In this document: positions 11,984-63,321 of the stretch, piece by piece
How positions within the stretch are numbered: position 1 is the stretch's first letter
Layout of the letters: every line of letters begins with the position of its first letter
Assembly: GCA_030674455.1 (NCBI GenBank)
Contig: JAUSGQ010000020.1
Coordinates: 13,461-77,460 of the forward strand
Source: a bacterium
Lineage (GTDB): Bacteria > Patescibacteriota > Minisyncoccia > Phycocordibacterales > UBA2100
Reading direction: 5' to 3'
Length of the DNA: 64,000 nucleotides
Position numbers and translations under genes: made by a program
The notes under the pieces: generated by a model
The model's input: the letters and a program-made list of their open reading frames with translations, nothing else
What the model was told of the DNA's origin: nothing
Databases searched by the model: none

Positions 11984-12007
11984 CCGCCAGAACAAAACTG
12001 ATAACCA

Positions 12008-12170
12008 CAAGCTTCAAGCTCCAAAAGCCAAACTTCCCGCCTGCGCCGAGGCTTCTGCGGGCAGGCAAACAAAATCTCAATGTTTAAATTCCAAACCACC
12101 AAACTGTTTCCGAGTTTGGAGCTTGGATATTGGAGCTTGTTTGATATTTGGAGCTTGGGATTTAGATTTT
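12008..12170. repeat. Intergenic inverted-repeat block, 'TTGGAGCTTG' family, locus 1
   Basis: CAAGCTTCAAGCTCCAAAAGCCAAAC ... GTTTGGAGCTTGGATATTGGAGCTTGTTTGATATTTGGAGCTTGGG. The same word family is at 26982-27117 and 44267-44404. Confidence 0.55.
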
Positions 12171-12227: not shown

Positions 12228-12368
12228 ATGCCCGGTAGGACAATTTCGAATTGCTTTGTATGAATATTCACCAGCGTACCGCAAGAAATATTTCTCTAAT
12301 CACACTTTGCATGGTCTTTATTATTCCACCGACAACAGTAATTATTCGAAATTGTACTAACCGGGTAT
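12228..12368. repeat. TIR element family 'A' copy 3 (TTCGAA variant, opposite orientation)
   Basis: ATGCCCGGTAGGACAATTTCGAA (12228-12250) and TTCGAAATTGTACTAACCGGGTAT (12345-12368). The terminal ...CCGGGTATG supplies the ATG of the downstream ORF. Confidence 0.75.
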
Positions 12369-15677: not shown

Positions 15678-18338
15678 ATGCAATACAATATGCAACGATT
15701 CAGTATCGCCGGTATTTGTATATCGGCTCTTATTATTAGCGCAGTGGTTGCTTACGCGGGACTGCAAATAGTTTCCGCTCAAGCGACGGCAACTCTAACA
15801 CTGCATAAAGTAGTAATAAATAACAACGGCGGCGCAGCAACGACCACGGATTGGACGCTTCAGGCAAGCGGGACGACTCCACTTTCGGGAGTAGATGGCA
15901 GTGCGGCAGTAACAAACGCGGCGGTTGAACCCGACACGTACAGTCTTGGCGAATTCGGGCCATCCGGATATACCTCTGCGGGTTGGGTCTGTACTGGAAC
16001 GGGAAATCAAACCGATAGCAACACGATAGTCCTCGGGGCAAATCAGAATGCGACATGTACCATAACGAATGATGATGTTGCGACCGTAAGAGTTCATACG
16101 CTCAAGTACCTCGACGGTTTGGAAGCGACGTCCGCCTCCGCGAACAACTACCAGTTTCCTGTGAGGGGAACATGGAAAGCTTCGAACATCAACGGCGGAG
16201 CTACGACAACCGTTGACTTCCTACTCGGTGTTAATGCGGGCGGTGCTCCTGAACAATATGGCGCGCTCACTGAGCCCCTGGCTTCACCAGCATACTTCTC
16301 CTTATTCGAAATTCCCAACACTGTAGATGGCACGAGCCAGGTCTTGCCGATAGGTGCGCAGTGCGAGGCGGGGAAATACCGGCTGCTTGGATATTCGTCG
16401 AGCGTCGCTGGTTTCGGCGATGCTGCAATTCAGCCCATTAGCACTTCAACGCCCGAATTTATCAACCTCGCGACGGATAGATATCTCATTGTATGGAACG
16501 AGAACTGCGATACGCCGAAACTCACCGTCAACAAGGTTGTGATAAATGACGACGGCGGAGAGGCGACTGTACCCAACTTCACCCTCTTCATTGACAACTC
16601 GACGACAACTTCCGGAGTTGCTTCATCAACTACGGTCGGAGCGCACGTCGTATCTGAAGCGCCAGATTCCGAATACACAGGCACAATCAGCGGCGATTGC
16701 GATTCGAACGGAAATGTGACCCTGGCTGCTGGAGAGAATAAGACATGTACGATTACCAACAATGACATAGCGGCAACAACAACGCCGCCAACCCTGACAG
16801 TAAACAAAGTTGTCATTAATGACGACGGCGGCACGGCGACGACCACAGACTTCACGCTGTTCATTGATAACGCAACGACCACTTCCGGAGTTGCTTCCAC
16901 AACTTCAGTCGGTGCGCACGTTGTATCGGAAGGGGCGCACTCAGGATACGCAGCGACGATTGGCGGTGATTGCGACGCCAGTGGCAACATCACATTGGCA
17001 TCCGGAGAGAACAAGACCTGTACGATTACCAACAACGATATAGCAGCGACAACGACGCCGCCAACTCTGACCGTAAACAAGGTTGTGATAAATAACGATG
17101 GCGGAACGGCAACAACGAGCGACTTTACGCTGTTCATTGACAACGCGACGACCACTTCCGGAACAACTGCCACGACGACAGTGGGCGCGCATGTGGTATC
17201 GGAAGGTGCTCACGCTGGCTATGCGGAAACGATTAGCGGCGATTGCGATTCGAACGGAAATGTGACTCTGGCTGCTGGAGAGAATAAGACATGTACGATT
17301 ACCAACAATGACATAGCGGCAACAACGACGCTGAAGGTTCACATTCTTAAGTACCTCGACGGCGCAATGGCAACGGCTAGCTCATCAAACAATTACCAAT
17401 TCCCGATGACATCGACGTGGCAGACGGCAAATCTTAATGGAGGCGCCACTACTACTGGCAGCTTTGTCCTGGGCAACTTCCACGGCGGAGCCGCGGATCA
17501 ATACGGAGCGGACACATCAGCGATGGAGGCACCGGCATACTACACAACTTCGGAAATAACCGACAATACAAGCTTGGTGTTGCCGCCGGAGGCGCAGTGC
17601 GAGACTGGCAAGTACCGACTGGTTGGATATTCGACTAGTACTATCAGTTTTGCCGACGCTGCGTTACAGCCCTCAAGCACGAGTACGCCGGAGTTCATTG
17701 GATTGAATTCGGATCGCTTCGTTATCGTGCGCGATGTCACATGCACAACGCCGACACCTCCTCCTTCGAATGTGTGCAGCCTCTCGCAAGCACCAAGCGG
17801 ATACACTCTGCAAAATGGAACGCCTGGACATGATAACGTAACGCTCGCTCCCAATACCATGTTCGTGGGAATGGGCGGCAACGATAGAGTAACTGCAGGC
17901 GACGGCAACTACATCATCTGTACCGGCACTGGCAACGATAGGATACGAACGGGGAACGGCGACGTTATCATCGACGCGGGCGACGGTAATAATTCCGTCG
18001 TGACCGGCGACGGCACGGGAGATATCACGACTGGTTCAAAGAATGACAAGATTACGACCGGGACGGGTACTCACACCATCAATGCTGGCGATGGAAACAA
18101 CAACATCCGAACCGGCGACGGCGACCAGATGGTGACGACCGACACCGGCAACGACAAGATAACGACGGGCAACGGCAACGACACAGTATCGGCCGGCAAT
18201 GGTAACAACAATATCAAGACCAATGGCGGCACCGATACCATCACGGCCGGAACAGGGAATGATAAGGTCGACGGCGGGTCTGGAACCGATAGCTGCAATG
18301 CCGATGGCGGCTTCAACTCGGTAACCAACTGTCCGTAA
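15678..18338 (+). CDS. Large secreted repeat protein with tandem DUF11-like domains and RTX-like C-terminal Gly/Asp repeats
   Basis: N-terminal signal or TM segment. Three ~81-aa tandem repeats (TLTVNKVVINDDGGTATTTDFTLFIDNATTTSG...NKTCTITNNDIAATTTPP), flanked by two copies of a ~140-aa domain (VH.LKYLDG...GKYRL.GYS). C-terminal GNDxIxTGxGxDxI nonapeptide-like repeats. Confidence 0.8.
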   Translation: MQYNMQRFSIAGICISALIISAVVAYAGLQIVSAQATATLTLHKVVINNNGGAATTTDWTLQASGTTPLSGVDGSAAVTNAAVEPDTYSLGEFGPSGYTSAGWVCTGTGNQTDSNTIVLGANQNATCTITNDDVATVRVHTLKYLDGLEATSASANNYQFPVRGTWKASNINGGATTTVDFLLGVNAGGAPEQYGALTEPLASPAYFSLFEIPNTVDGTSQVLPIGAQCEAGKYRLLGYSSSVAGFGDAAIQPISTSTPEFINLATDRYLIVWNENCDTPKLTVNKVVINDDGGEATVPNFTLFIDNSTTTSGVASSTTVGAHVVSEAPDSEYTGTISGDCDSNGNVTLAAGENKTCTITNNDIAATTTPPTLTVNKVVINDDGGTATTTDFTLFIDNATTTSGVASTTSVGAHVVSEGAHSGYAATIGGDCDASGNITLASGENKTCTITNNDIAATTTPPTLTVNKVVINNDGGTATTSDFTLFIDNATTTSGTTATTTVGAHVVSEGAHAGYAETISGDCDSNGNVTLAAGENKTCTITNNDIAATTTLKVHILKYLDGAMATASSSNNYQFPMTSTWQTANLNGGATTTGSFVLGNFHGGAADQYGADTSAMEAPAYYTTSEITDNTSLVLPPEAQCETGKYRLVGYSTSTISFADAALQPSSTSTPEFIGLNSDRFVIVRDVTCTTPTPPPSNVCSLSQAPSGYTLQNGTPGHDNVTLAPNTMFVGMGGNDRVTAGDGNYIICTGTGNDRIRTGNGDVIIDAGDGNNSVVTGDGTGDITTGSKNDKITTGTGTHTINAGDGNNNIRTGDGDQMVTTDTGNDKITTGNGNDTVSAGNGNNNIKTNGGTDTITAGTGNDKVDGGSGTDSCNADGGFNSVTNCP
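16500..17340 (+). repeat. Three tandem ~243-bp coding repeats inside the large secreted protein gene
   Basis: ACCGTCAACAAGGTTGTGATAAATGACGACGGCGG... recurs at ~16518, ~16797 and ~17063 with >85% identity. Confidence 0.8.
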
Positions 18339-18927: not shown

Positions 18928-19012
18928 CAATCCAAATCCGGGGTTTTGGAGCCGAGGCCCCACATGAAATCAAAGTAGGCGCTTAGGGTGTTGGAAAATT
19001 CTTTGCTCTCTA
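18928..19012 (-). pseudogene. Duplicated 3'-terminal fragment of the TrmB-like gene (direct repeat / att-like)
   Basis: The 85-bp segment AATCCAAATCCGGGGTTTTGGAGCCGAGGCCCCACATGAAATC.AA.TAGGCGCTTAGGGTGTTGGAAAATTCTTTGCTCTC also occurs at 19766-19851. The minus-strand translation FIIESKEFSNTLSAYFDFMWGLGSKTPDLD* equals the C-terminus of 19764-20528. Confidence 0.7.
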
Positions 19013-19243: not shown

Positions 19244-19696
19244 ATGGCTCAACCGTTCGACTATAAGTTCGGGCTCACCGAGATTATTCCCTCCAAGCAA
19301 TTAGACGACCGCGAAGGTCAAAAAGTGACCACCTTCAAGACACTTGTGGAGAAGACGATAACATCGGAGGTACTCAAATCCCTCGCTTTTCCTTCTAAAA
19401 GAGAGGTCTTTGTGTCGATAATGCAATTTTTTGCAAGCAAGAAGGAATATGAAAGCCGAGATATTGATAATATGTCAAAAACAGTTATGGACTGTCTCAA
19501 GGGTAAGCTTTACATTGACGACGCGCAGGTACGGACACTTTTGATAAGCAAAAAGATTTCTCCAAAGGTTCCGACGAACTTCGTGTTCGTTGGAATGAGG
19601 GAAATAAAGGGAGAAACAGATGTTGGCATCGTACAGAATAATTTGCTGGAACAGGCCGTTACCCTTTATCAGGCATCTGCGAAAGCGGTAGCATGA
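19244..19696 (+). CDS. rusA: RusA-like Holliday-junction resolvase (phage-type)
   Basis: SRDIDNMSKTVMDCLKGKLYIDDAQV matches the RusA catalytic signature (D-x-D-N...K...DD-x-Q-V). Confidence 0.65.
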   Translation: MAQPFDYKFGLTEIIPSKQLDDREGQKVTTFKTLVEKTITSEVLKSLAFPSKREVFVSIMQFFASKKEYESRDIDNMSKTVMDCLKGKLYIDDAQVRTLLISKKISPKVPTNFVFVGMREIKGETDVGIVQNNLLEQAVTLYQASAKAVA

Positions 19697-19763: not shown

Positions 19764-20528
19764 CTAATCCAAATCCGGGGTTTTGGAGCCGAGGCCCCAC
19801 ATGAAATCGAAATAGGCGCTTAGGGTGTTGGAAAATTCTTTGCTCTCAATAATAAATCCGAAATTTTCTTCTTTGGTGGAAACCATGGCGACTTTGTGGT
19901 CGTAAATCATGATTATGGCCGCATAGAAAACGGACGGGGGGAGATAGCGCACGTAACGTTTTAGCTTCGGGTCTTCCATCCCGCGCTTATTCGTATACAA
20001 ATCTCCGTGCTTGGGGTGAAGATTGCGCGTAATAATGCCGCGCGCGATTCTTTTTTTAATAAACTCGTTGATGAACGCGTCTCCGACGACTTCGTTGTGC
20101 TGGCGCGCCCGCACAATTTGCTTTATTTCTTTTGATTGGCAGTCAAGCGCGTCGTCATAGATTTTCTTCACACCCTCGCGCCCCTCAAAAAACGCGATTT
20201 TCGGTCGCACGTGGTGTGTGATGAACAAATTTGAAAGCCCCGGCAGGACTTCTGCCACTCGTTTCTTCTTTTCTTCAAGCATCGAGAGGATAAGAGCGGG
20301 GTCTTGCGCCTCGTAGAGTTTCTGTTTTCCTTTGTACCTGCTTTTGACAAGGTCCATCGCCTCCAACTCTTCGACGATTCCGTAGACAGTCGTTCTTTTA
20401 ATTTGAGCGGCAGTTGCAATTTGCGGGATTTTAGACGGACCAGCTTCCAAGCAGGCGATATAGACTTGCGCCTGCTTGTGCGTGAGCCCTGCGTCCATAA
20501 GTTCCTTTTTGTACATATTTTTCGACAA
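19764..20528 (-). CDS. TrmB-like HTH transcriptional regulator
   Basis: N-terminal LTHKQAQVYIACLEAGPSKIPQIATAAQIKRTTVYGIVEELEAMDLV is a TrmB-type wHTH. The C-terminal 30 aa are duplicated at 18928-19012. Confidence 0.55.
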   Translation of the reverse strand: MSKNMYKKELMDAGLTHKQAQVYIACLEAGPSKIPQIATAAQIKRTTVYGIVEELEAMDLVKSRYKGKQKLYEAQDPALILSMLEEKKKRVAEVLPGLSNLFITHHVRPKIAFFEGREGVKKIYDDALDCQSKEIKQIVRARQHNEVVGDAFINEFIKKRIARGIITRNLHPKHGDLYTNKRGMEDPKLKRYVRYLPPSVFYAAIIMIYDHKVAMVSTKEENFGFIIESKEFSNTLSAYFDFMWGLGSKTPDLD

Positions 20529-21515: not shown

Positions 21516-22631
21516 TTAAATTTTCTCTTTCGATTCGGAAAAGAAAATGTGATTTCTTGAAATGCCAAGTGTCTTTAATCGCTTTACGATAAAATCGTTC
21601 ATGGCTTTTTCGGACTTTCCGCCAGAGGCGCCTTGCCCGCCTCTGGCTGGGGATCCGCCTCCGGCGGAAAATTTGATTACTTTGCCTTTATCTATTACCG
21701 CCCACTGTCCCACTGCACGCAAGACGTCGACTTTGTTGAATACGATGTGCGTGACGCCGTTCATGCGGATGGCGCGCTCGAGTGTTTGGATGTTCATCCA
21801 GTTGCACTGGCGGCGGCGGCCTGTCGTTGCGCCGTATTCTTCTCCGAGGTCGCCCATTTTGTTGAAGACATCTCCCTCGGGCTGGAATTTCTTGCTGCCC
21901 ACGTATGTTTCGTAGATTTTTGCGACTCCCCACACATCGCGGATTGCCGTTGCGGGAAAGCCGTTCAAAAGTGCGCCGGCCGTTGTGCAGTGAGACGATG
22001 TGACGAAGGGGTAGTCGCCCCAATCAATGTCGAGCCCGAATCCCTGCGCTCCCTCCGCGAGGATGTTTAATTCGCCCCTCGACTTCGCTCGGGGTAAATA
22101 CCACTCCTTGTATAAATCAATGAGATAGGGCTTCAGCTCCGGCACATTTTCGGCGCGCAAGCCGGTGCGGCCGTACTTGTCGCGATATGCGGGGCCGTTG
22201 CCGCGGCCCGTCGTGCCGATTGCACCGCCGCCTTTTTTGTCTTCGGCCTTGTGCGCGTCGGTGATGACGTGCGTGTTGTTTGCGATAAAGATTTTGCCTT
22301 TAGTCGCGACGCCGCCTTCGTTCAAAATTTTAATTTCGCGGAAGAACTGCTCGGGGTCCAGCACGCAGCCGGAACCGATGACAGAGCGCACGCCAAAAAA
22401 TACTCCGGCCGGAATGTGGTGGGTGATGAACTTAACTCCTTTATGAAAAATGGTGTGGCCTGCGTTGCATCCGCCGTTGTACCGCAGAACGTGGGAGTAT
22501 TTCTTCGTCTTGCACAAAAAGTGGGCGACTTTGCCCTTTCCGCAGTCTCCGTATTGGAGGTCTACGATTACATCAATGTTTATCTTTGACTTTGACACAG
22601 CTAACTTATAGTAACATCCCACAAACGACAT
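21516..22631 (-). CDS. purA: Adenylosuccinate synthetase
   Basis: YGDCGKGKV (P-loop), NAGHTI, GTTGRGNGPAYRDK and GATTGRRRQCNWMN are canonical PurA motifs. Start set at MSFVGCYYKLAV... (22631) rather than the longer ORF. Confidence 0.9.
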   Translation of the reverse strand: MSFVGCYYKLAVSKSKINIDVIVDLQYGDCGKGKVAHFLCKTKKYSHVLRYNGGCNAGHTIFHKGVKFITHHIPAGVFFGVRSVIGSGCVLDPEQFFREIKILNEGGVATKGKIFIANNTHVITDAHKAEDKKGGGAIGTTGRGNGPAYRDKYGRTGLRAENVPELKPYLIDLYKEWYLPRAKSRGELNILAEGAQGFGLDIDWGDYPFVTSSHCTTAGALLNGFPATAIRDVWGVAKIYETYVGSKKFQPEGDVFNKMGDLGEEYGATTGRRRQCNWMNIQTLERAIRMNGVTHIVFNKVDVLRAVGQWAVIDKGKVIKFSAGGGSPARGGQGASGGKSEKAMNDFIVKRLKTLGISRNHIFFSESKEKI

Positions 22632-22667
22632 GCAACTTAGACGGTTTGTGGGAAAATTTGCAAGTTC

Positions 22668-22698
22668 CAATTTGCAATTTGCAAACAAAATTCCAAGT
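22668..22698. repeat. 31-bp repeat CCAATTTGCAATTTGCAAACAAAATTCCAAG upstream of purA
   Basis: Exact reverse complement found at 52800-52830, next to the purH-like gene. Confidence 0.6.
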
Positions 22699-23329: not shown

Positions 23330-24502
23330 CTAGAACGGGTTTCGGATATCGTTACGAATCTCAAAATGCACGTGCGAACCGGTGGATTTGCCGGTGGAGC
23401 CGACATATCCGATGACCTGGCCTCGCACAACGCTCTGTCCGACGGAGACGATGTTTTTGGAGTTGTGCGAATACAGAGTTTGCGAGCCGTTGCTATGCTG
23501 AATCACGATGTAGAGTCCATACCCGCCATTCCATCCTCCATTTTTCGATACAATTACATCTCCATCCGCCGAGGCGAGTATAGGAGTACCTTTAGGTGCT
23601 GCGAGGTCCACTCCGTTGTACCCGTGGATACCTTGAGTCCTTACATAATGTGCGAGGGGAGCTGTGTAGTAGGCAATCTGCGCTACCGTACCCGTGTGTG
23701 AATTGAGCGTCGTGGCTAAGGTACCCTTAGCCGGCTTGGTCGAGGCCGGGGCGGCAACGACCGCAGCGACCGCAATCTCGCCATCCGGAATGATAAGTTT
23801 CATGCCTGCGATAATCATGCCCTCGTCAAGGCCGTTGAAATTGGCGATGTCCACTGCGTCCGCATCGAACTTCTTTGCGATTGAGGCGAGCGTATCGCCC
23901 GACTTTACGGTGTATCGCACGCCGGTAATCGGCAAGATAACGAGCATTTGCCCGACTTTAAGCACGGCGTTGCGGGGTAAATCGTTTGCCCAAAGGATGG
24001 TGTCGGGAGAGACCTTATAGAGCTTCGCGATGCCATTCAGCGTATCGCCCTCGACTACGGTGTAGACGCTGATGGTCGCGTTCTTCGGCTTTTCAATGTC
24101 GGATATCGTGCCGGCGGGACCCTCTTCCGGCATGAGCGCGGAACCGTCCACTATGGTTATGTCGCCGCCGCCTCGCGCGGCTGATGGGTCGATGTTCATT
24201 GCCGGCCGCGGAAGCTGCATCGTTTGAACGTTGTCAGTTATGACAGCGGCCGCCTCTGTTGGCTTTGCCGTCATCATGCCTAGCGATGCCAGCAAATCGC
24301 CGAGGACTCCGGCTTTTGCCATGCTAGGAAGAACCGAACCGGTTATAAGTATGAGAGAAATTAAAGAAACCGCCAGCCTGCGTCGCCTGCCCGCGCGTTG
24401 CGCGCAGGCGGACGAACGCGACAGGCAGGCCACTCGTGCAGTCTTAGACCTCCGATATGTCCTCTCGCGCGCGGGTCGTAAATCCGCGCCGGAATCCTTC
24501 AA
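23330..24502 (-). CDS. LysM-domain M23 family peptidoglycan metalloendopeptidase
   Basis: Two LysM repeats (YTVVEGDTLNGIAKLYKVSPDTILWAN; YTVKSGDTLASIAKKF). C-terminal M23 motifs HGYNGVDLAAPKGTP and GSTGKSTGSHVHFEI. N-terminal Arg-rich segment, then a TM or signal sequence. Confidence 0.85.
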   Translation of the reverse strand: MKDSGADLRPARERTYRRSKTARVACLSRSSACAQRAGRRRRLAVSLISLILITGSVLPSMAKAGVLGDLLASLGMMTAKPTEAAAVITDNVQTMQLPRPAMNIDPSAARGGGDITIVDGSALMPEEGPAGTISDIEKPKNATISVYTVVEGDTLNGIAKLYKVSPDTILWANDLPRNAVLKVGQMLVILPITGVRYTVKSGDTLASIAKKFDADAVDIANFNGLDEGMIIAGMKLIIPDGEIAVAAVVAAPASTKPAKGTLATTLNSHTGTVAQIAYYTAPLAHYVRTQGIHGYNGVDLAAPKGTPILASADGDVIVSKNGGWNGGYGLYIVIQHSNGSQTLYSHNSKNIVSVGQSVVRGQVIGYVGSTGKSTGSHVHFEIRNDIRNPF

Positions 24503-24952
24503 TTGGCTTGTTATATGCGTTTTTGGACGGGGTCGATGAGAATTTCAATCGAAATGTGGCTTTATATCTGGCCCTTTAAGAAAGCAGGGAAAGATAGGCC
24601 GCAAAGAGCAAGGACAAGACCACCGTACCTTTTCACTCTACCTTCATGGTTTGGCGAGTCAACCTCATAGAATCTTCACAGGTGGATAGCGATTTTGTCA
24701 ATTTTGGCTCCGGAGAGGTTGCCGAGGGTGCGCTACCATGCAAAATATCGATAATAACGTGCTTTTGAGCCGTATTTTGACGCTCCATGCTCGCGAGGCG
24801 AGGAATGCCCAGTGCCGAAAAGCACTATTGGTGACTTCACCAAATCACGATAGGCGATGTTTAGTTACTGGGTGTCAATAGCAAAAATGCCGGCGTGCTA
24901 TAGTTCACCGGTTCCCGTTAGTTACTGATGGAGACGTATCACCCTTGCTATT

Positions 24953-26980
24953 ATGACAACAAAATTCCTGGATGGCTTAAATGTGGCTCAAAAGCAGGCT
25001 GTCTTGCATAAAGACGGACCGCTGCTAATCGTTGCGGGAGCGGGAGCCGGAAAAACAAAAACTATCACGCACAGAATCGCACAACTAATAGAGAGCGGGG
25101 TGTCCGCACGTTCGATACTCGCGGTTACTTTTACAAATAAAGCTGCTGAAGAAATGCGCACACGAGTACAGAACTTATTACGAGCGGAGGGGGACCTGCC
25201 CGCCGAAGCTTCTGCCTGTGCGTCTTCGCACGCAGACAGGTCGGCGCAGGCGGGGATGCGCGAGCGGGTACTCGGCCTGCTCCCCGAACGACACGGCGGC
25301 CTGCCTGCATCGCAGACGCGACAGGCAGGCTTGCCTCTCATAACGACCTTCCACTCGCTCGGCGTCCGGCTTTTGCGGGAATTCCATGAGGTTGCCGGCA
25401 TCCCGCGCGGTTTTTCCATCTGGGATCAGGATGACAGCACGCGCGCCGTCAAAAATATCCTGAAACAGCTCGATACCGAGGAATGGACTCCGCGGCAGAT
25501 ACTTTCCGCAATTTCCCGAGAGAAAGGAGCGGGGAAGTCGGCTGGTGAATATCGTGAGCGCGCGGAGAACCGCCGCGAGCAGGCAACGGCGCAGGTGTGG
25601 GAGCGCTATGAGAAAATGCTAAAAGATGAGGGGGGATTGGACTTTGATGATTTACTGGTCCGGACGGTCACGCTTTTCCGCGAATCGCCAAAAACGCTCT
25701 CGCTTTTGCAAAATCGCTGGCACTATCTGACCGTTGATGAATATCAGGACACAAGCGGGATGCAATATGAAATGATGAGACTTTTGTGCGGGGATCGTAA
25801 TAATATTTGCGTTGTGGGCGACTTGGACCAATGTATATACGCATGGAGGCAAGCAGAAATTGGAAACTTGTTGTCGTTCGAGCGAATTTTCCCAAGCACA
25901 AAAGTTGTTCGGCTCGAGCAGAACTACCGCTCGACGAGGACCATCCTCGCGGCGGCAAACGCTGTGATAGCAAAAAACGTCAACCGAATTCCAAAAAATC
26001 TTTTCAGCGAGAATGATACCGGGGAGCCCATAACGATTTACGACGCGATGAATGAGCGCGATGAAGCATGGTTCGTCGTGGAAAAATCAGCGGGACTGAT
26101 TGATTCTCGCGTGCCATCGCAGGAAATCGCCGTGCTATATCGTGAGAATGCCATGTCGAGAGTTTTGGAAGAAGCGTTTCTTCACGCAGGTATTCCATAC
26201 CGCGTCTTGGGAACCAGATTTTTTGAGCGTAGAGAAGTGAAAGATGTGCTTTCATATCTGCGCGCCGCACTCAATCCAAAAAGCAAGGGCGATTTCGCGC
26301 GAATCATCGCCGTTCCGCCGCGCGGAATCGGAAAAATCACGCTCGAAAAGTTCTTTAAGGGAGAAACGCTCGGCGCTGCCGGAGTGAAAGTCGCGAAGTT
26401 CCAGGAGTCGCTTGTAAAAATCGGGCATGCAGTGAAAACTTTGCCCGCATCCGAGGCAGTTCGTTTTTGCATTGAAGAAAGCGGGATACAAAAAATGTTC
26501 GACAGCAAAACGGAAGAGGGACGCGAACGGCTCGGTAACGTTCGCGAGCTTGCAAACCTCGCGGCGAAATACGAAAACGATGAGCCGCCATCGGGAATTG
26601 AACGGCTATTGGAAGAGGCGGCGCTGCAGAGCGAGCAGGACGAACTCGACATCGCGAGAGATAAGAGCGGGGTTTCACTTATGACAGTACACGCCTCGAA
26701 GGGGCTGGAATTCGACGCGGTATTCATTGTAGGGCTAGAACAGGGGCTTTTCCCGTCACTGCGAGATGACGGCAGCCGCGACCCGGAAGAAGAGCGGCGG
26801 CTTTTTTATGTTGCCCTTACGCGCGCGCGCAAACATCTTTTTCTTTCATACGCTCATGAGCGCACAAAATACGGCATGAGAGACACTGCCATGCCGTCGG
26901 AATTCCTTTCGGATATTGATTCGCGATTGATGAAACACGCTCTCGATGATAACGGGGGAAAGGAAGACATCATCGAGTAA
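24953..26980 (+). CDS. UvrD/PcrA/Rep-family ATP-dependent DNA helicase (superfamily 1)
   Basis: Motifs I (AGAGAGKTKTITHRIA), Ia (TFTNKAAEEM), II (YLTVDEYQDT), III, V and VI (VALTRARKHLFLSY). Contains an unusual ~50-aa GC-rich insertion between motifs Ia and Ib. Confidence 0.9.
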   Translation: MTTKFLDGLNVAQKQAVLHKDGPLLIVAGAGAGKTKTITHRIAQLIESGVSARSILAVTFTNKAAEEMRTRVQNLLRAEGDLPAEASACASSHADRSAQAGMRERVLGLLPERHGGLPASQTRQAGLPLITTFHSLGVRLLREFHEVAGIPRGFSIWDQDDSTRAVKNILKQLDTEEWTPRQILSAISREKGAGKSAGEYRERAENRREQATAQVWERYEKMLKDEGGLDFDDLLVRTVTLFRESPKTLSLLQNRWHYLTVDEYQDTSGMQYEMMRLLCGDRNNICVVGDLDQCIYAWRQAEIGNLLSFERIFPSTKVVRLEQNYRSTRTILAAANAVIAKNVNRIPKNLFSENDTGEPITIYDAMNERDEAWFVVEKSAGLIDSRVPSQEIAVLYRENAMSRVLEEAFLHAGIPYRVLGTRFFERREVKDVLSYLRAALNPKSKGDFARIIAVPPRGIGKITLEKFFKGETLGAAGVKVAKFQESLVKIGHAVKTLPASEAVRFCIEESGIQKMFDSKTEEGRERLGNVRELANLAAKYENDEPPSGIERLLEEAALQSEQDELDIARDKSGVSLMTVHASKGLEFDAVFIVGLEQGLFPSLRDDGSRDPEEERRLFYVALTRARKHLFLSYAHERTKYGMRDTAMPSEFLSDIDSRLMKHALDDNGGKEDIIE

Positions 26981-26981
26981 G

Positions 26982-27117
26982 CTCCAAGCCACAAAATCCA
27001 AGCCACAAACAAGCTACAATATATAAATTCTAAAAATCTAAACGAAATGCGTCTTGTTGTTTATGAGTTTAATTATTGAGATTTTGTTTGGATTTTGGTA
27101 TTTGGAGATTGGAGCTT
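26982..27117. repeat. Intergenic inverted-repeat block, 'TTGGAGCTTG/CCAAGCC' family, locus 2
   Basis: GCTCCAAGCCACAAAATCCAAGCCACAAACAAG ... TTGTTTGGATTTTGGTATTTGGAGATTGGAGCTT ends at the rsmA ATG. Confidence 0.5.
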
Positions 27118-27975
27118 ATGCGGCATAGACCAAAACTTGGACAACATTTCCTGAAAGCTAAATGGGCTGCGCGCTCGCTCGCTTATGCAGTTGGCATTTC
27201 TCCGGGCGACACAGTGCTAGAAGTCGGGCCTGGCAAAGGAGCTCTCACGCGCGAGCTACTTGCGATTGCTAAAGATGTCGGCGCAAAAGTTGTGGCGATT
27301 GAAAAAGATGAGGCGCTGGTCGCACATCTCGGTGAAATATTCGCAGATGAGATATCTTCGGGAATTCTCATAGTTGTTGCGGGAGATGTACGCGATGTTT
27401 ACCAAGGAGAGACCTTAAAATCCCCAAGGTCTCACCTTGGAGACGCGACCGCGGCACTATCTGGAAAATATGTTGTGGCGGCAAATATTCCGTACTACAT
27501 AACCGGAGAAATCATCCGCCAATTTCTAACAGCAGAGATACAGCCGCGCACGATGGCGCTTCTTGTGCAAAAAGAAGTCGCGCAAAGGGTTGTAGCTAAA
27601 CCCGCCGGAGGCGGGTCCTCCTCCGGAGGAAAGGAGAGCTTGCTTTCGCTCTCCGTTAAAGCGTACGGAACTCCGAAAATAGTTGTGAAAGTTCCACGCG
27701 GGAATTTCTCGCCGGCGCCGAATGTTGATTCGGCCATTCTTCTGGTAGAAAATATTTCCAGAGACTTTTTCTCTAGTATTAGCGAGGAGCTATTCTTCAA
27801 GGTGATACACGCCGGGTTCAAATCGAAAAGAAAATTCCTGCTCAATAATCTCGCTGGCACATTCGAGAAGGAGATTGTCGCGCGAGCATTCACCGAGTGC
27901 GGCATCAGTATGAAAGCCCGCGCTGAGGACGTACCGCTCGAGAAATGGAAAGCCCTTGCATTACACCTCGCTTAG
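27118..27975 (+). CDS. rsmA: 16S rRNA (adenine1518/1519-N6)-dimethyltransferase
   Basis: RPKLGQHFL at the N-terminus, the SAM-binding VLEVGPGKGALT, and NIPYYIT. Start at Met 27118. Confidence 0.85.
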   Translation: MRHRPKLGQHFLKAKWAARSLAYAVGISPGDTVLEVGPGKGALTRELLAIAKDVGAKVVAIEKDEALVAHLGEIFADEISSGILIVVAGDVRDVYQGETLKSPRSHLGDATAALSGKYVVAANIPYYITGEIIRQFLTAEIQPRTMALLVQKEVAQRVVAKPAGGGSSSGGKESLLSLSVKAYGTPKIVVKVPRGNFSPAPNVDSAILLVENISRDFFSSISEELFFKVIHAGFKSKRKFLLNNLAGTFEKEIVARAFTECGISMKARAEDVPLEKWKALALHLA

Positions 27976-35715: not shown

Positions 35716-36146
35716 GTGTCAGGTTCCAGGTTTTAGGTTCCAGACAAAAATGCAAAGCATCAATTCGTACAAAGACCTTATAGTGTGGCAAAAAGCTATT
35801 GATGTTGTCGCTGACACATATGCCATCACGCGAAAGTTCCCGTCTTTTGAGAACTTCGGACTTTCATCACAGATGCAACGAGCTGCTGTTTCCATCGCCG
35901 CGAATATCGCGGAGGGACGTGGCCGCGGGACACGAACCGATTACGCGCATTTTTTGGATATATCGAATGGATCAGTATCGGAACTGGAAACGTTGCTAAC
36001 AATTGCGAAGCGTTTGTCGTACTGTAGAGAAGAACAGTGTAGTAGAATGGAGGAGCAGTTAGGTGAAATCGGGAAAATGCTCGGTACTTTGCGTGCTAAG
36101 TTACGACGCTTCTCCTAACACCTGAAACCTGTCACCTACAACCTAC
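35715..36146. mobile_element. IR-flanked mini-element carrying a four-helix-bundle gene (copy 1)
   Basis: Left GGTGTCAGGTTCCAGGTTTTAGGTTCCAG and right CTAACACCTGAAACCTGTCACCTACAACCTAC are imperfect inverted repeats. The same IR words occur without cargo at 36599-36725 and 48926-49030. Confidence 0.45.
35750..36118 (+). CDS. Four-helix-bundle protein (PF05635-like, '23S rRNA intervening-sequence protein' family)
   Basis: YKDLIVWQKAIDVV...SQMQRAAVSIAANIAEG...FLDISNGSVSELETLL matches the family signature. Confidence 0.7.
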   Translation: MQSINSYKDLIVWQKAIDVVADTYAITRKFPSFENFGLSSQMQRAAVSIAANIAEGRGRGTRTDYAHFLDISNGSVSELETLLTIAKRLSYCREEQCSRMEEQLGEIGKMLGTLRAKLRRFS

Positions 36147-36151
36147 CCAAT

Positions 36152-36598
36152 ATGCAATTCCAAGTTCCGCAATTTATAGAGGTTGAAGATAAGATTTTCG
36201 GGCCTCTTACTTTTAAGCAGTTCGTGTATGTCGCGGGCGGGCTTGGCACGTGCTATCTCTTCTGGAAAATTCTGCCTGTGCTCATATCGGTTCCGCTCAT
36301 TGCGGTGACAGCTGCGCTTGCGGCCGTTCTCGCGTTTTTCCAATTCAACGGAAGACCGTTTGTCGCCGCGCTCGAGCACGGCTTCTATTTTCTTTTGCGG
36401 AGCAAACTCTACCTCTGGAGGAATGATGAGAATGGAAGGGAACAGGCGGCAACAAAAAAACAGCTTCTGGACAAACAGGCGCAGGAAAAGGGGAAATCTC
36501 TCGTATATATTCCGAGCCTTTCCAACAGCAAACTGCACGATTTAGCCTGGAGCCTAGATATAAAAGAACAAATCGCCGAGAGCGAGGCGAGTGAATAG
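36152..36598 (+). CDS. PrgI/VirB3-like small conjugal-transfer membrane protein
   Basis: IEVEDKIFGPLTFKQFVYVAGG followed by two TM helices matches the PrgI-family architecture. Immediately upstream of the VirB4 homolog. Confidence 0.5.
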   Translation: MQFQVPQFIEVEDKIFGPLTFKQFVYVAGGLGTCYLFWKILPVLISVPLIAVTAALAAVLAFFQFNGRPFVAALEHGFYFLLRSKLYLWRNDENGREQAATKKQLLDKQAQEKGKSLVYIPSLSNSKLHDLAWSLDIKEQIAESEASE

Positions 36599-37854: not shown

Positions 37855-39762
37855 ATGTCCCTCCTCGACCTCTTCAGAAGCAAAAAGACAAACGCCGAAC
37901 CGTCGGCGCTTCCCATACTCCCCGAGGAAATTTATTCGGCCGGCGTTTTGGATTTGCAGGATGTCATCGCTCCGCACGCGCTAAAGATAAGCTCGCGCGA
38001 ACTGGACTTGGGCGAGCGCATCGCGCGCACATTTTTTGTTATTTCCTATCCGCGCTTTCTCACCACCGGCTGGTTCGCGCCCATCATCAACATGGACAAA
38101 GTCCTGGACATTTCCATATTCATTCACCCGATGGACACGAGCGAAATGCTCCGAAAATTCCAAAAGAAAGTCGCCGAAGTGCAGAGCCAGATATCCACGC
38201 GCGAGCAAAAGGGAATGGTGCGCGACCCGATGCTCGATACCGCGTATTCCGACCTCGAGGGTCTGCGCGACTCTCTCCAGCAGGCGCAGGAACGCATCTT
38301 TGAGGTCGGCCTGTATCTCACCGTATACGGCAACACCCGTGAGGCGGTAGATAAAATAGAATCCGAGATACGCTCTGTTCTTGAATCGCGCTTAGTCTAC
38401 ATTCGCCCCGCGCTTTTTCAGCAAGAGCAAGGATTCAGGAGCGTCCTTCCGCTCGGCAATGACGAGCTCGATGTTCATACGAAATTGAATTCCGCTCCGC
38501 TCTCCTCTATCTTCCCATTTATCTCATTCGACCTCACTTCAAACCGCGGAATTCTCTACGGCATCAACCGGCATAATTCTTCGCTTATTCTCTTCGACCG
38601 ATTCTCGATGGAGAACTATAACTCGGTCATGTTCGCGAAATCGGGTTCTGGAAAGAGCTACATGACGAAATTGGAAATCCTGCGCTCGCTCATGTTCGAC
38701 ACGGAAGTCATCGTCATAGACCCTGAACGCGAGTATGAATATCTGGCGTCTACCGTGGGCGGCCGGTATTTCAATATTTCACTTTCATCGGAACACCACA
38801 TCAATCCGTTCGATCTTGCTATCCCGCGCGAAGACGAAAATCCTGCGGATATTTTGCGAAGCAACATCATTACTCTCGTCGGACTTTTCCGCATTATGCT
38901 TGGAGGCCTCTCTCCCGAGGAAGACGCTATTATCGACAGGGCGATAACTGAAACGTACGCGCTTAAAGACATTACGGCGGAAGCAAACTTCGCGGCAATT
39001 GAGCCGCCGCTACTCTCCGACTTTGAGCTGGTGCTCTCCGGCATGGAGGGAAGCGAATCGCTCGTACAGCGACTTTCGAAATATACTAAAGGTACGTGGT
39101 CGGGATTTATGAACAGGCCGACGAACGTGGACATGAATAAAAAACTCATCGTATTTTCCGTCCGCGATATGGAAGACGACCTGAAGCCCATCGCGATGTA
39201 CATCATTACGCACCACATATGGAATGTCGTGCGCAAAGAACTTCGCAAGCGCCTACTCGTCATAGACGAGGCGTGGTGGATGATGCGCTCCGCGGACACC
39301 GCCTCATTCCTGTTCTCAATCGCAAAAAGAGGAAGAAAATATTTCCTCGGTATTTCCACGATAACGCAGGACGTTTCGGACTTCTTGAACTCTCCGTACG
39401 GCCTGCCCATGATAACGAACTCGTCCATACAGATTCTTTTGCGGCAATCCCCGACTTCGGTGGACCTCGTCCAGCAGACTTTCAAGCTTTCGGATGAAGA
39501 AAAATATCTTCTGCTCGAGTCGGACGTGGGAGAGGGAATATTTTTCGCCGGACTAAAGCACGTGGCCATCAAAGTCATCGCTTCGTACACGGAAGACCAG
39601 ATAATCACATCCGACCCGTCGCAAATTCTTGCAATCCGCAAGGCAAAACAGGAATTGGCAGATGCAGAGAGCGCCCAGGCTACGTCTGCGATTACAACTG
39701 ACGCCGCTTCCTTCGCCCCGGCTCAGAATACCGCCGCCAGTTCTACAGCCACGCTCAAATGA
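37855..39762 (+). CDS. VirB4-like T4SS ATPase (C-terminal 635 aa including the ATPase domain)
   Basis: IAPHALKISSRELDLGERIARTFFVISYPRFLTTGWFAPIINMDKVLDISIFIHPMD is a VirB4-typical segment. Walker A MFAKSGSGKSYMTK, Walker B RLLVIDEAWWMM. Together with 36728-37378 it would make ~851 aa, a normal VirB4 length. Confidence 0.8.
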   Translation: MSLLDLFRSKKTNAEPSALPILPEEIYSAGVLDLQDVIAPHALKISSRELDLGERIARTFFVISYPRFLTTGWFAPIINMDKVLDISIFIHPMDTSEMLRKFQKKVAEVQSQISTREQKGMVRDPMLDTAYSDLEGLRDSLQQAQERIFEVGLYLTVYGNTREAVDKIESEIRSVLESRLVYIRPALFQQEQGFRSVLPLGNDELDVHTKLNSAPLSSIFPFISFDLTSNRGILYGINRHNSSLILFDRFSMENYNSVMFAKSGSGKSYMTKLEILRSLMFDTEVIVIDPEREYEYLASTVGGRYFNISLSSEHHINPFDLAIPREDENPADILRSNIITLVGLFRIMLGGLSPEEDAIIDRAITETYALKDITAEANFAAIEPPLLSDFELVLSGMEGSESLVQRLSKYTKGTWSGFMNRPTNVDMNKKLIVFSVRDMEDDLKPIAMYIITHHIWNVVRKELRKRLLVIDEAWWMMRSADTASFLFSIAKRGRKYFLGISTITQDVSDFLNSPYGLPMITNSSIQILLRQSPTSVDLVQQTFKLSDEEKYLLLESDVGEGIFFAGLKHVAIKVIASYTEDQIITSDPSQILAIRKAKQELADAESAQATSAITTDAASFAPAQNTAASSTATLK

Positions 39763-58385: not shown

Positions 58386-58744
58386 GTTTAGTTTGCTCTC
58401 TGCGATTCAATCGAATCGGTTTGAGGGAACTAGTGATGCTTGACAAATGAGTTTAATGTGCTATACTTGCCAATAACTTCATTTTACACCCATTTACTCG
58501 GCCTTTGCTAGGCTACGGCGGACTCAGCTCGCCTTCGCTAAAGCTTCGGCGGAGCAAAGTCGGAAGCAGGATTTTCCGAGCGATAGTGACCACATCGAGG
58601 ATGAGGCGGTTTCGGCCTCCTCTCTCCTTAGATTTCGCGTTGCCACTTTCGCCAGAAAGTTTCGCTCGGATAATCGTACTCCCGACTACTAAATGAACGA
58701 TACCATTGCACGCAGGCCGCGCAATGGCCTTTTGCATATAGGTA

Positions 58745-60926: not shown

Positions 60927-63321
60927 AAAAACAAAACGCCTCGTTATTCTTGATACGCACGCGATTGTTCATCGCGCATACCACGCGATTCCCGATCTTT
61001 CTTCCTCAAAGGGCGAGCCGACGGGTGCCTTGTATGGACTGACGGCGATGATTCTCAAAACTATTGCCGATTTGAAACCTGATTACATAATCGCCGCGCG
61101 CGACCGCGCCGAGAAGACGCACCGGCACGAAATATTTGAAGCGTATAAAGGAACGCGGGCAAAAGTGGAGGACGCTCTTGTGGCGCAGTTGAAACGCACA
61201 GGCGAAGTCTTCGACGCGTTCGGCATCCCGACACTTGATGTTGCAGGATTCGAAGCAGACGACATCATCGGCACGGTGGCGGAGCAGGTCGCAAAACGAA
61301 AAGACCTCCAGACGGTCATTCTGACGGGTGATATGGACATGCTGCAGCTCATCGAGGACGGGCGCGTCACTGTCTACCGGCTTCTTACCGGCATTTCCAA
61401 CATGAAATTCTATGATGAAGCAGCGGTCAAAGAGCGATACGGATTTGGGCCGGAAAATGTAACCGACTTCAAGGGAATATCGGGCGATGTCTCCGATAAC
61501 ATCAAAGGCGTGCCCGGTGTAGGAGAAGGCGGCGCGTCAAAACTCATACAAACATTCGGCGGACTCGACGAAATATACAAGGCCATCCGGAAAGATGGCG
61601 TGGAAAGCGTTGCGAAAAAAGCGGGAATACAAAAACGGTACGTCCAACTCGTGGCCGATAACGAGGAGGCAGCCCGATTTTCCAAAGGACTCGCGACCAT
61701 ACGCCGCGATGCACCAATCACTTTCACAGAGCCGGACCATCCGTGGCGCATAGAAGACCATGCACCCGGAATTCTTTCTTTGTGCGACGAGCTTGAATTC
61801 CATTCGCTCAAAAAACGCGTACCTGCCTTGCCCGCCGAAGCCTCGGCGAAGGCGGGAGTGTCTGAAAAGTTGGAGGTTGTTGATGCGCGAGCCCTGCAAG
61901 AAGCCTCGATAGCTCTCTGGCTTCTCCATTCCGACAACACGGCGCCATCCTTGGAAGATATTTTGCGGTATGCAAAAAAAGACTTGCCCGCCGAAGCTTT
62001 AGCGAAGGAGGGGGATTTTGAGGCGGCGCGCGCGATAATTTTTGATGAACTCAAGAAAACGCCGAGTGTGCAGAATGTATACGACACAATTGAGCGGCCG
62101 CTCATACCGGTCATTGAGCGCATGAATAAAGACGGAATCCTTCTGGACGTGCCGTATCTGAAGAAACTCGCGGAGGAATATGAGAAAGAATTGGGAAAAA
62201 TCAGCGCGCGCATCTATAAAGCGGCTGGGCGCGAATTCAATATCAATTCTCCGAAGCAATTGGCGGGCGTGCTGTTTGATGAATTAAAAATTGTGCCCCA
62301 AAAACAAAGGAAGACCCCGGGCGGGGCGCGGACAACGCGCGAGGATGAGCTGGAGAAAATGTCGGAGCTACACCCGATTATTGCCGATATCCTCGCGTAC
62401 CGTGAACTGCACAAATTGCTTTCTACGTATGTTCAAAAAATGCCCGGGATGGTCGGGGAGAGCGGCCGCTTGCACGCGGAATTTCTGCAGGCTGGGACGA
62501 CCACGGGGCGCATGTCGAGCCAGAATCCGAATCTGCAGAATATTCCGATTAAGAGCGAGTACGGCAGGCGCGTCCGCTCGGCATTTCGCGCGAGCCCGGG
62601 GTTTTTGCTCGCGGCGCTCGATTATTCGCAGATAGAGCTTCGCATCGCGGCCGGACTTTCGGGCGACAAGAAATTACTCAAGACGTTTGCGGAGGGGAGC
62701 GATGTACACACGACTGTCGCGAGCCAGGTCTTCGGCGTGCCGGAGGAAAAGGTGGACTACGAAATGCGCCGAAAGGCAAAGGTTATAAACTTCGGCATCC
62801 TTTACGGAATGGGTTCGAATGCCCTGAAGTCGAATTTGGGAAATGTTTCGCGCGAAGAGGCCGCGCGATATCTTTCCGAATACTTTAAGAAATTCTCGGG
62901 ACTTGCTCTGTGGATAGAACGTACGAAGCTGGACGCCGCGCGCAACGGCTTTACCGAAACTCTGTTTGGCCGTCGCCGTTACTTCGCTGGTTTCAATTCG
63001 CCGCTTCCGAATATGCGGGCGCAGGCGGAGAGAATGGCGGTGAATGCTCCGATACAAGGAACGCAGTCGGACATCATAAAGCTTGCGATGGTGAAAGCCG
63101 ATAATCTCATTGAAGAAAAAGGATTGCGCAAACAAGTGCGGCTGGTTCTACAGATACACGACGAGCTGGTGTATGAAATTGAGAGAAAAGAAGCGGAAGA
63201 AATCGCGCGCGAACTCCGCGAGACAATGGAATCCGTCGTCCCTAAGGGCAAGCTTTCCGGTGTGCCGATCGTGGCGGAAGTTGCGATTGGGGAGAATTGG
63301 GGAGCGATGAAGCGCGTATAG
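60913..63321 (+). CDS. polA: DNA polymerase I (5'-3' exonuclease + family A polymerase domain)
   Basis: N-terminal 5'-nuclease (LVILDTHAIVHRAYHA; GIPGVG). Pol motif A DYSQIELRI, motif B RRKAKVINFGILYG and motif C QIHDELV. No obvious 3'-5' exonuclease motifs. Start at MTSHKK (60913). Confidence 0.9.
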   Translation: MTSHKKTKRLVILDTHAIVHRAYHAIPDLSSSKGEPTGALYGLTAMILKTIADLKPDYIIAARDRAEKTHRHEIFEAYKGTRAKVEDALVAQLKRTGEVFDAFGIPTLDVAGFEADDIIGTVAEQVAKRKDLQTVILTGDMDMLQLIEDGRVTVYRLLTGISNMKFYDEAAVKERYGFGPENVTDFKGISGDVSDNIKGVPGVGEGGASKLIQTFGGLDEIYKAIRKDGVESVAKKAGIQKRYVQLVADNEEAARFSKGLATIRRDAPITFTEPDHPWRIEDHAPGILSLCDELEFHSLKKRVPALPAEASAKAGVSEKLEVVDARALQEASIALWLLHSDNTAPSLEDILRYAKKDLPAEALAKEGDFEAARAIIFDELKKTPSVQNVYDTIERPLIPVIERMNKDGILLDVPYLKKLAEEYEKELGKISARIYKAAGREFNINSPKQLAGVLFDELKIVPQKQRKTPGGARTTREDELEKMSELHPIIADILAYRELHKLLSTYVQKMPGMVGESGRLHAEFLQAGTTTGRMSSQNPNLQNIPIKSEYGRRVRSAFRASPGFLLAALDYSQIELRIAAGLSGDKKLLKTFAEGSDVHTTVASQVFGVPEEKVDYEMRRKAKVINFGILYGMGSNALKSNLGNVSREEAARYLSEYFKKFSGLALWIERTKLDAARNGFTETLFGRRRYFAGFNSPLPNMRAQAERMAVNAPIQGTQSDIIKLAMVKADNLIEEKGLRKQVRLVLQIHDELVYEIERKEAEEIARELRETMESVVPKGKLSGVPIVAEVAIGENWGAMKRV

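Follow-up and report, generated by a model that had tools for sequence, protein, structure and literature searches.

What gives rise to the GC-rich, palindrome-bearing segments that lie in frame inside two divergent genes, one for a UvrD/PcrA-type helicase and one for a LysM-LysM-M23 peptidase, in a 64,000-nucleotide stretch of bacterial DNA (GenBank assembly GCA_030674455.1, contig JAUSGQ010000020.1, positions 13,461 to 77,460; hereafter the window)? We think it probable that these segments are mosaics of very small dispersed hairpin repeat units that were copied to many genome sites and that persist as non-autonomous selfish DNA. The units are GC-rich, hairpin-forming and mostly 30 nt long, in some cases 27 nt (polA site 3 of locus L251) or 21 nt (a nested piece in purA, and locus L129); they account for at least 11 modules in 64 kb and recur at nucleotide identity in unrelated genes and spacers. 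The closest relatives of the window carry Kaiserbacteria or Patescibacteria labels, placing its genome among uncultivated Patescibacteria near Candidatus Kaiserbacteria, and the gene order purA - peptidase - helicase - ksgA is retained in loci L001, L002, L003, L128 and L129, with L002 as the closest relative (87% identity).

A sequence-only reading of this DNA had singled out the two segments as richer in GC than their surroundings, as sharing words and as holding local palindromes, and all three observations are borne out by measurement. GC content is 0.724 at 24365-24440 and 0.705 at 25195-25340 versus 0.496 for the whole window, and 25179-25340 is the window's longest island at GC of at least 0.70. 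The 15-mer ACGCGACAGGCAGGC occurs exactly twice in the window (24416 and 25316), while GCGCAGGCGG lies at 24402 and 25244 and, allowing up to one mismatch, has 16 window matches versus 6.5 expected. The palindromes CCTGCC..GGCAGG (2 window matches versus 0.03 expected) and GCCTGC..GCAGGC (5 versus 0.11) are far in excess of expectation, and all of their matches sit in the helicase and peptidase segments or in a third copy at 12039. Moreover, a shared 12-mer arises in just 89 of 20,000 composition-matched shuffles of both segments. For the helicase island, folding predicts one hairpin after another (-86.5 kcal/mol, z = -2.97), and the peptidase segment folds with z = -1.8. The units are not high-copy, and k-mer enrichment across the window brought out no standout word.

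The helicase gene (24953..26980, plus strand, 675 aa) was assigned by its Pfam UvrD-helicase and UvrD_C domains and by its match to PcrA (1PJR, E = 2e-136), and was compared with 120 orthologs, as well as at the codon level with the DNA of L001, L002, L128 and L129. Its extra residues 79-129 map between PcrA residues 82 and 89 in the 1PJR alignment, so that motif Ia (TFTNKAA) and motif Ib (TFHS) are 66 aa apart versus 20-22 aa in most orthologs, in agreement with the roughly 50 extra residues that had been noted between these motifs. In an AlphaFold model built with 40 orthologs (mean predicted local distance difference test score, pLDDT, 74), residues 81-123 form a coil with pLDDT below 50, flanked by helix 62-77 and strand 129-132. 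The insert is thus modelled as a disordered loop between the helix that follows motif Ia and the motif Ib strand, in favour of the loop location that had been proposed.

Relative to L002 the helicase gains 132 in-frame bases, in two blocks of 102 and 30 nt, which corrects the earlier description in that the insert is composite. The larger block is built around unit A (CCTGCCCGCCGAAGCCTCGGCGCAGGCGGG, 30 nt), the best-defined of the units. Directly 5' of it lies the first copy of a duplicated host segment, EMRTRVQNLLRAEG (25151..25192, plus strand), recognised by codon-level comparison and written in low-GC codons. There follow the left part of unit A, CCTGCCCGCCGAAGCTTC (25195..25212, plus strand; nhmmer match 25194-25214), which is uninterrupted in L001 at the same site; unit C, a 30-nt hairpin TGCCTGTGCGTCTTCGCACGCAGACAGGTC nested at the apex of unit A (25213..25242, plus strand), a gain of exactly 30 nt over L001 at this point; and the right part of unit A, GGCGCAGGCGGG (25243..25254, plus strand), delimited by nhmmer and by comparison with L001. 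The second copy of the host segment, MRERVLGLLPERHGGLP (25256..25306, plus strand), is GC-rich and is the one that aligns with the single copy of the orthologs, which hold one EMRxRVxxLL where the window helicase holds two. The smaller block is a B-type hairpin, GCCTGCCTG..CAGGCAGGC, with a perfect 9-bp stem (25299..25330, the feature extending to 25336, plus strand), whose net gain of 30 nt (25307-25336) appears as a gap in L001, L002 and L003. Its left arm consists of host GGLP codons, and ACGCGACAGGCAGGC, at the right, is the hallmark of a family whose metagenome matches number at least 120. Unit C likewise belongs to a family, found also in polA of L251 and L252 and in metagenome loci such as L178.

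The insert could in principle be nothing more than a protein insertion specific to the lineage, passed on by vertical descent and conserved as amino acids, and one ortholog is suggestive of this: P0018, the helicase protein of L001, has DLPAEASAQAG together with a duplicated MRxRVxxLL at the same position. However, the uninterrupted unit A of L001 (GACCTGCCCGCCGAAGCCTCGGCGCAGGCGGGG), which like the window's lies beside a duplicated host segment, is identical to the window's in the nucleotides of the shared core, while the flanks are visibly much more diverged, so that what is shared is nucleotide sequence rather than a lineage-wide, amino-acid-conserved segment. Furthermore, a neighbour-joining tree from which the loop columns were left out makes P0002, which has no insert, the sister of the window helicase within an insert-free clade, whereas P0018, the sole and partial sharer, falls in a different clade whose remaining members lack unit A. 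As the unit is also present in intergenic DNA and in other proteins, we hold vertical inheritance of a protein insertion to be very unlikely. Some members of the P0018 clade carry unrelated mini-hairpins of 21 nt and 42 nt (the latter nested) at this same helicase loop, and L128 versus L129 provides a further case of apex nesting. A separate observation is that the helicase orthologs P0022, P0036, P0054, P0075 and P0079 are about 1,000-1,043 aa long and contain an intein (PF14890); with the intein of these Kaiserbacteria-type orthologs, the gene thus hosts a second kind of in-frame selfish element.

The peptidase gene (23330..24502, minus strand, 390 aa, domains assigned by Pfam) starts with TTG; we place the start at 24502 because the N-terminus MKDSGADLRPA is conserved with L002 and aligns to the ATG of the L002 ortholog. 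An in-frame insert of 57 nt, ACLSRSSACAQRAGRRRRL (24374..24430, minus strand; fold -34.2 kcal/mol), has empty sites in both L002 and L003. It amounts to 19 codons after residue 23, in the N-terminal tail directly ahead of a hydrophobic segment; what had been described as an Arg-rich N-terminal extension is therefore an internal insertion behind a conserved N-terminus. Like the helicase insert it is composite, with an outer B-type hairpin (24376-24431) that ends in ACGCGACAGGCAGGC and a unit A' hairpin, GCCTGCCCGCGCGTTGCGCGCAGGCGG (24384-24410), nested inside; the A' subfamily recurs, again nested, in polA of L251.

The family of unit A has at least five further copies in the window (two intergenic, two in polA, the gene for DNA polymerase I, and the one split in the helicase) versus a chance expectation of 0.00, and the coding copies are in frame, a point that had been put forward as a check. 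The intergenic copies are an intact unit at 12036..12065 (minus strand, 0 mismatches to the pattern) and ..CCGCCGAAGCTTTAGCGAAGGCG.. at 58530..58552 (minus strand, nhmmer), in the spacer between ruvB and a T2SSE ATPase gene. The polA copies lie 156 nt apart: a variant CTTGCC..GCGAAGGCGGG, read as LPAEASAKAG (61827..61856, plus strand, matched by pattern and nhmmer), and a variant CTTGCCCGCCGAAGCTTTAGCGAAGGAGGG, read as LPAEALAKEG (61983..62012, plus strand). The second is a polymorphic insertion of 10 codons. Its site (..RYAKxx|DFExAR) is empty in most aligned orthologs, including the closer P0124-P0126, but is filled by a unit A family insert of exactly 10 codons in P0122, P0128, P0135, P0136 and P0141 and of 20 codons, nested, in P0123. 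At the DNA level, comparison of the empty polA of L250 with the window, L251 and L252 reveals clean insertions of 27 or 30 nt with a repeat of at most 2 nt. In L251 the apex of an outer unit holds a nested A' unit, from the subfamily that the window peptidase also carries, and a third polA site holds unit C as in the window helicase, to which L252 adds an apex-nested 30-mer. The genome also provides an empty site of its own, since an AT-rich repeat upstream of ksgA (empty point about 27075-27100) is a paralog of the surroundings of the 12036 copy minus exactly 30 nt, leaving room for a target duplication of no more than a 1-nt ambiguity. This paralogous repeat, about 100 nt long and rich in TTTGG/TTGGAG, spans 27030-27150 (plus strand) and 11975-12125 (minus strand); the latter copy occupies the 383-nt spacer before a dksA-like gene, is the only one to hold unit A, and lies where L001 has a spacer of about 35 nt. 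The orientation of the six window copies of unit A relative to dnaA (46.2 kb) is inconsistent, giving no replication-strand bias.

Two further genes of the conserved cluster carry another unit, D. In purA, an insert encoding SAGGGS[PARGGQG]ASGG (21618..21668, minus strand, delimited by ortholog gaps) combines the palindromic unit D, 30 nt long, with 21 further nt (21630-21650) that sit nested at its centre, and includes a 10-bp hairpin at 21621-21647. This site is empty in L001, carries +30 nt in the form of the perfect palindrome TCCGCCGGAGGCGGATCCGCCTCCGGCGGA in L002, and carries +51 nt in the window. In ksgA, a unit D copy encoding PAGGGSSSGG (27601..27630, plus strand) is identical at 26 of 30 positions to the L002 purA palindrome, and L003 is empty. 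Nearly all indels of at least 5 codons between conserved genes of the window and those of its closest relatives are such units, with lengths of 21, 30, 57 or 102 nt and GC of 0.65-0.80. With these empty sites and recurring units, the original idea of a small GC-rich repeat inserted in frame and tolerated in loops or termini proves largely right; what it had missed is the quantum of 27-30 nt (also 21 nt), the nesting, the purA, ksgA and polA carriers and the spread over many phyla. Another insert peptide, GPVRS[DIP]ASNG, is shared by the L003 ksgA product and one other protein of that relative (L002 14585-14689; L003 5132-5164 and 7392-7496), suggesting yet another unit family, one that the window lacks.

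The reach of unit A beyond this lineage was determined by scanning one genome per species of the Genome Taxonomy Database (GTDB) with the query CYTGCCCGCNGAAGCNTCGGCGMAGGCGG; the public scans used exact patterns and cover only the matches listed, thus diversity and copy number are underestimated, and the taxon labels are the submitters' own. Exact copies of unit A occur in at least 117 stretches from species-representative genomes, whose labels span about nine phyla, namely many classes of Patescibacteria as well as Verrucomicrobiota, Planctomycetota, Acidobacteriota, Myxococcota, Pseudomonadota, Desulfobacterota, Bacteroidota and Methylomirabilota, and it is also found on 7 IMG/VR viral contigs. 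Some matches lie on Mb-scale contigs (L052, 2.3 Mb; L078, 4.1 Mb), at GC of up to 0.72 (L034). Because the flanks of these loci are mutually unrelated, the conserved entity is the 30-mer itself, which is preceded by K-R and ends in GGCGGG. An artefact of assembly or sequencing might be suspected, given that the genome matches are all metagenome-assembled genomes (MAGs) and that neither PLSDB nor INPHARED holds a match. But the same insert occupies the same site in independent assemblies (the helicase of the window and L001, purA of the window and L002), matches come from many studies and from within Mb-scale contigs, host-like sequence and an intact long open reading frame (ORF) continue on both sides (as in L034, at GC 0.72), and an artefact could not produce the reading-frame bias described below. 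We consider this explanation extremely improbable.

Another possibility is that the inverted repeats arose and grew in place, by switching of the replication template, by nick-and-fill at hairpins or by slippage where hairpins were already present, with no mobile unit involved. Several features have this flavour: the B-type insert of the helicase carries the reverse complement of the GGLP block and a (C/T)TGCCT repeat, the nested purA piece is complementary to the adjoining older arm, hairpin apexes are always the place where new material appears, and the flanking duplications differ in length. However, local synthesis cannot account for one 30-mer, non-palindromic and with asymmetric arms around a GAAGCCTC core, that recurs between unrelated flanks across about nine labelled phyla, nor for A' and C units that are shared by different genes in different genomes, and polA site 2, purA, ksgA and the paralogous AT-rich site are clean 30-nt insertions that bear no similarity to their flanks. 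Local origin by itself is therefore unlikely, though it may contribute, as copy-choice between dispersed copies.

Flanking direct repeats (score of at least 9) accompany 18 of 117 unit A copies versus 1 in the control, and most of them are tandem heptamers within the host ORF. A simple model of target-site duplication was rejected for the heptamer flanks, since identical flanks occur in different genes and genomes (L119/L045, L009/L075), and since the AT-rich repeat is also present without unit A. In the Verrucomicrobiia MAGs L008, L019, L027, L037, L059, L070, L074, L102 and L106, unit A lies inside a longer conserved repeat, ..CCCTCTCCCTTTCCAAGGGAGAGGG[unit A]GTCAGGGTGAGGGTTCG.., that is present on many contigs of one genome and could be a carrier of unit A.

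The B family, defined by the pattern GCCTGC..ACGCGACAGGCAGGC, is found in at least 120 metagenome stretches (L130-L249) and resolves to an element of 50-70 nt with the block order a b GTCGCGAACGCGAC a' b'; unit C and the B-type ends seen in the window are fragments of this element or related to it. Its blocks, of which a' is fixed by the search pattern, are perfectly complementary yet interleaved (a b hairpin a' b') and not nested as in a simple hairpin; the arms of unit A repeat this interleaving on a small scale (CCTG.CCCG ... CAGG.CGGG), giving two mutually exclusive hairpins. An H-type pseudoknot was considered for the B family and rejected as improbable on steric grounds, a' and b' being separated by 0-1 nt. 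Full B-family copies were also set aside as coding evidence, because the 8 of 64 that lie in ORFs are all in high-GC contigs.

How unit A is used within genes bears on whether the inserts reach the protein. Among the matches listed, 61 of 122 copies lie in ORFs of at least 200 codons, 35 in sense and 26 in antisense orientation, and a stricter rule retains 38 copies in clear ORFs. These 38 are distributed unevenly over the six frames (chi-square p = 0.0016): LPAEASAQAG 13, PACAEASAGR 11, PARRSLGAGG 7, PRLRRGFGGQ 4, PPAPRLRRAG 3 and CPPKPRRRR 0, a bias towards frames rich in Ala, Ser and Glu, and all four coding family-A copies in the window read in the two favoured frames. Host genes elsewhere include those for class I aminoacyl-tRNA synthetases (aaRS), GatA, TsaD, MnmA and FolD. 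All unit variants but one, the main units included, are stop-free in all six frames, and each insert set against an empty site has a length divisible by three. The frame bias and the stop-free units fit a predicted translation followed by selection on the encoded peptide. They argue against the inserts being intervening sequences kept out of the protein, whether by ribosome bypassing (of the kind known from T4 gene 60 and from the byps of yeast mitochondria) or by RNA excision. Although GC-rich hairpins with direct repeats resemble, in some cases, a take-off and landing layout, a skipped unit would need neither a length divisible by three, freedom from stops in every frame (as in the main variants) nor a bias to benign peptides, and no matched codons flank the window copies, which renders such skipping highly improbable.

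Might the unit instead be a functional nucleic-acid motif (a protein-binding site, an RNA stabiliser, a terminator or a DNA-uptake-type signal) that is kept, and has spread, for the benefit of the host? Its strong conservation against diverged flanks in the window and L001 would be expected of such a motif, and some intergenic copies do lie at gene ends. Likewise, unit A when folded at full length includes a T3:G28 wobble, to which variant 2 adds T2:G29, and these pair in one strand only, which suggests a constraint on a folded single strand. The common variant C2T, C23A alters one wobble-compatible and one bulged position, so that the fold is kept in one strand only. But the copies occur in both orientations in host genes (the 35 sense and 26 antisense above), and the fold constraint thus belongs to the element and not to the host mRNA. 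In addition, copies sit mid-gene in unrelated housekeeping genes, their presence varies among close relatives with no gene-specific pattern, the low copy number in the window is unlike a genome-wide uptake signal, and no Rfam family was matched: neither the whole window, nor the locus, nor 12 B-family loci produced a meaningful hit. We therefore regard a host-serving motif as improbable.

The explanation that we favour, dispersed selfish hairpin units, would operate as follows. Non-autonomous units would be copied by way of a folded single strand, DNA or RNA, by an activity encoded elsewhere. A stop-free unit whose length is a multiple of three would leave the reading frame intact and for this reason could survive in a surface loop or tail, where it is predicted to be translated as a short flexible peptide rich in Ala, Gly, Ser, Pro and Arg; selection would then sieve the reading frame. 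Spread between lineages would be horizontal, possibly aboard viruses or larger repeats that contain the units. Apex nesting (in the helicase, the peptidase, purA, L128 versus L129, and polA of L251 and L252), the repeated use of the same insertion sites in different lineages and the lack of a fixed target duplication together point to an insertion chemistry unlike classical transposition.

Several observations weigh against this explanation. No gene for a transposase, reverse transcriptase, Cas1 or Y1/HUH protein is found by Pfam among the 39 largest ORFs of the window, and no protein family recurs beside unit A when the 2,327 ORFs of 120 loci are clustered all-against-all, only host aaRS families being recurrent; mobility is therefore inferred from distribution alone. 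Target-site duplications are not consistent (0-2 nt at polA, purA, ksgA and the paralogous site, about 6 nt in L129 and about 39 nt in the helicase), a poor fit to a classical transposase. Arms that are reverse-complementary to adjacent host sequence, as in the GGLP codons of the helicase and the nested purA piece, could reflect local templated synthesis. The lack of a fixed target duplication and the occasional long one, as in the helicase, are compatible with copy-choice or with repair templated by other dispersed copies, which would also explain the host-codon left arm of the helicase B-type hairpin. Finally, the genome matches are all MAGs, the isolate-derived PLSDB plasmids and INPHARED phages hold no 28-nt match, and translation of the inserts is a prediction from sequence.

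Other features of the window lie apart from the repeat units. A direct repeat of about 68 nt (18929-18996 and 19766-19833) brackets a gene for a RusA-family resolvase (19244-19696), which could be a small inserted cassette. Two conserved motifs, ..TCGAAATTGTACTAACCGGGTATG.. and ..CCCGGTAGGACAAT..., stand immediately upstream of several start codons, among them that of dnaA and that of the dksA-like gene (positions 338, 3605, 12344-12366, 45136 and 46205-46227, and also 450, 3720, 12226, 45256 and 46096), and look like promoter or leader elements. An inverted sequence of about 33 nt, AAATTGCAAATTGGAATTTTGTTTGCAAA.., is shared between 22666-22698, upstream of purA, and 52803-52821, beside purH, and may be a purine-regulon operator. 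A gene for a 23S_rRNA_IVP/bAvd-like four-helix bundle (35750-36118) lies inside a type-IV-secretion-like cluster that includes PrgI (36152-36598) and a TraG P-loop ATPase (37855-39762) and is syntenic with L001. The AT-rich kilobase 7001-8000 (GC 0.30 versus 0.50), whose ORFs 6982-7473 and 7576-8034 have no Pfam match, may be a foreign islet, and a gene for a SpaA_2/RTX-repeat protein (15678-18338) contains a near-exact internal tandem repeat with a 546-nt period (16530-17312).

A literature search with the exact sequences and peptides returned no paper, and a keyword search returned analogues only. We read the closest of these as the small dispersed repeats (SDRs) of cyanobacteria and the Rickettsia palindromic elements (RPEs), and the units described here as a variant of very small mobile repeats. 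SDRs, described by Elhai and colleagues in 2008, reportedly have units of 21-27 nt that form hairpins, often lie in tandem heptamers, nest in one another, have no associated gene and have a structure that fits one strand. Against those lengths the present units span 21-30 nt, and they resemble SDRs in hairpins, in having no associated gene and in one-strand structure, in being embedded in tandem heptamers (18 of 117 copies versus 1 control) and in nesting within their own kind (helicase, peptidase, purA, L128, L251 and L252). The units here differ, however, in being GC-rich, and we know of no description of SDRs inserted in frame into housekeeping genes. One report (PMC5861425), which cites the 2008 work (Genome Res 18:1484), gives SDRs as not found outside Nostocaceae, whereas the hosts here are Patescibacteria and eight other labelled phyla; the two are set apart by description and not by sequence. 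RPEs, according to a review (PMC10969869), are palindromic, lie in frame in unrelated housekeeping genes and are translated as extra segments compatible with the fold, much like the in-frame, fold-tolerated inserts in the helicase, peptidase, purA, ksgA and polA and, elsewhere, in aaRS, GatA, TsaD, MnmA and FolD. RPEs are, however, about 100-150 bp long, confined to Rickettsia and conserved as a peptide, while the units here are 5 times smaller (21-30 nt), cross phyla, use at least 5 frames and nest.

Other families of short palindromes are more distant. Repetitive extragenic palindromes (REPs) and their doublet forms (REPINs) are GC-rich imperfect palindromes of 20-40 bp, dispersed, non-autonomous and mobilised by REP-associated tyrosine transposases (RAYTs) (PMC3116915, PMC3733652). 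They are extragenic and species-specific, bear a GTAG or CGTC tag and have a RAYT gene alongside, whereas the consensus of unit A and its flank (K R | CCTGCC...GGCGGG) has neither GTAG nor CGTC, the CGTC of the B family is internal and not an end tag, and 38-61 of about 122 unit A copies are inside long ORFs. No RAYT (Y1 transposase) is present among the scanned ORFs of the window, and none recurs near unit A copies. The GC clusters of yeast mitochondria are short mobile GC-rich palindromes that invade AT-richer DNA, including coding regions, and from which the byp elements derive. These are organellar, skipped by the ribosome and free of frame, unlike the codon-quantised units here with their frame selection; bypass elements such as byps and that of T4 gene 60 moreover have matched take-off and landing codons, often with stops, whereas the window copies have no matched flanking codons. 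PARCEL (palindromic amphipathic repeat coding element; PMC2996958) and the Coxiella QMITE (PMC5896051), a miniature transposable element with inverted repeats (MITE), are palindromic coding repeats that occur in either orientation, have a horizontal distribution and generate protein variation. Both are longer, PARCEL consisting of tandem repeats in surface proteins and MITEs having terminal inverted repeats and target-site duplications, in contrast to the single 30-nt units in loops of core enzymes seen here. These clean 30-nt insertions, with repeats of 0-2 nt, lack the terminal inverted repeats and fixed target-site duplication of a MITE, and no parent insertion sequence was seen for the units.

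We offer, more tentatively and as something that may well turn out otherwise, the wider proposal that the units represent a cosmopolitan class of codon-quantised, stop-free 30-nt hairpins that moves inside and among the genomes of many phyla and their viruses by hairpin-directed insertion at apexes, leaving no fixed target duplication, through a single-stranded DNA or RNA intermediate. If true, these would be among the smallest mobile DNAs that spread horizontally and would serve generally to supply new loops to the essential proteins of streamlined genomes. If the units are mobile, the size limit of phylum-crossing mobile DNA would drop to about 30 nt, and the SDR phenomenon of cyanobacteria would be revived in a much wider phyletic frame. 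Their mobility would also account for many short low-complexity insertions in proteins of uncultivated bacteria, a concern for the annotation, alignment and phylogeny of markers such as aaRS, PolA and TsaD, and it would mean that selfish DNA persists even in the gene-dense, reduced genomes of Patescibacteria, as translatable loops inside genes.

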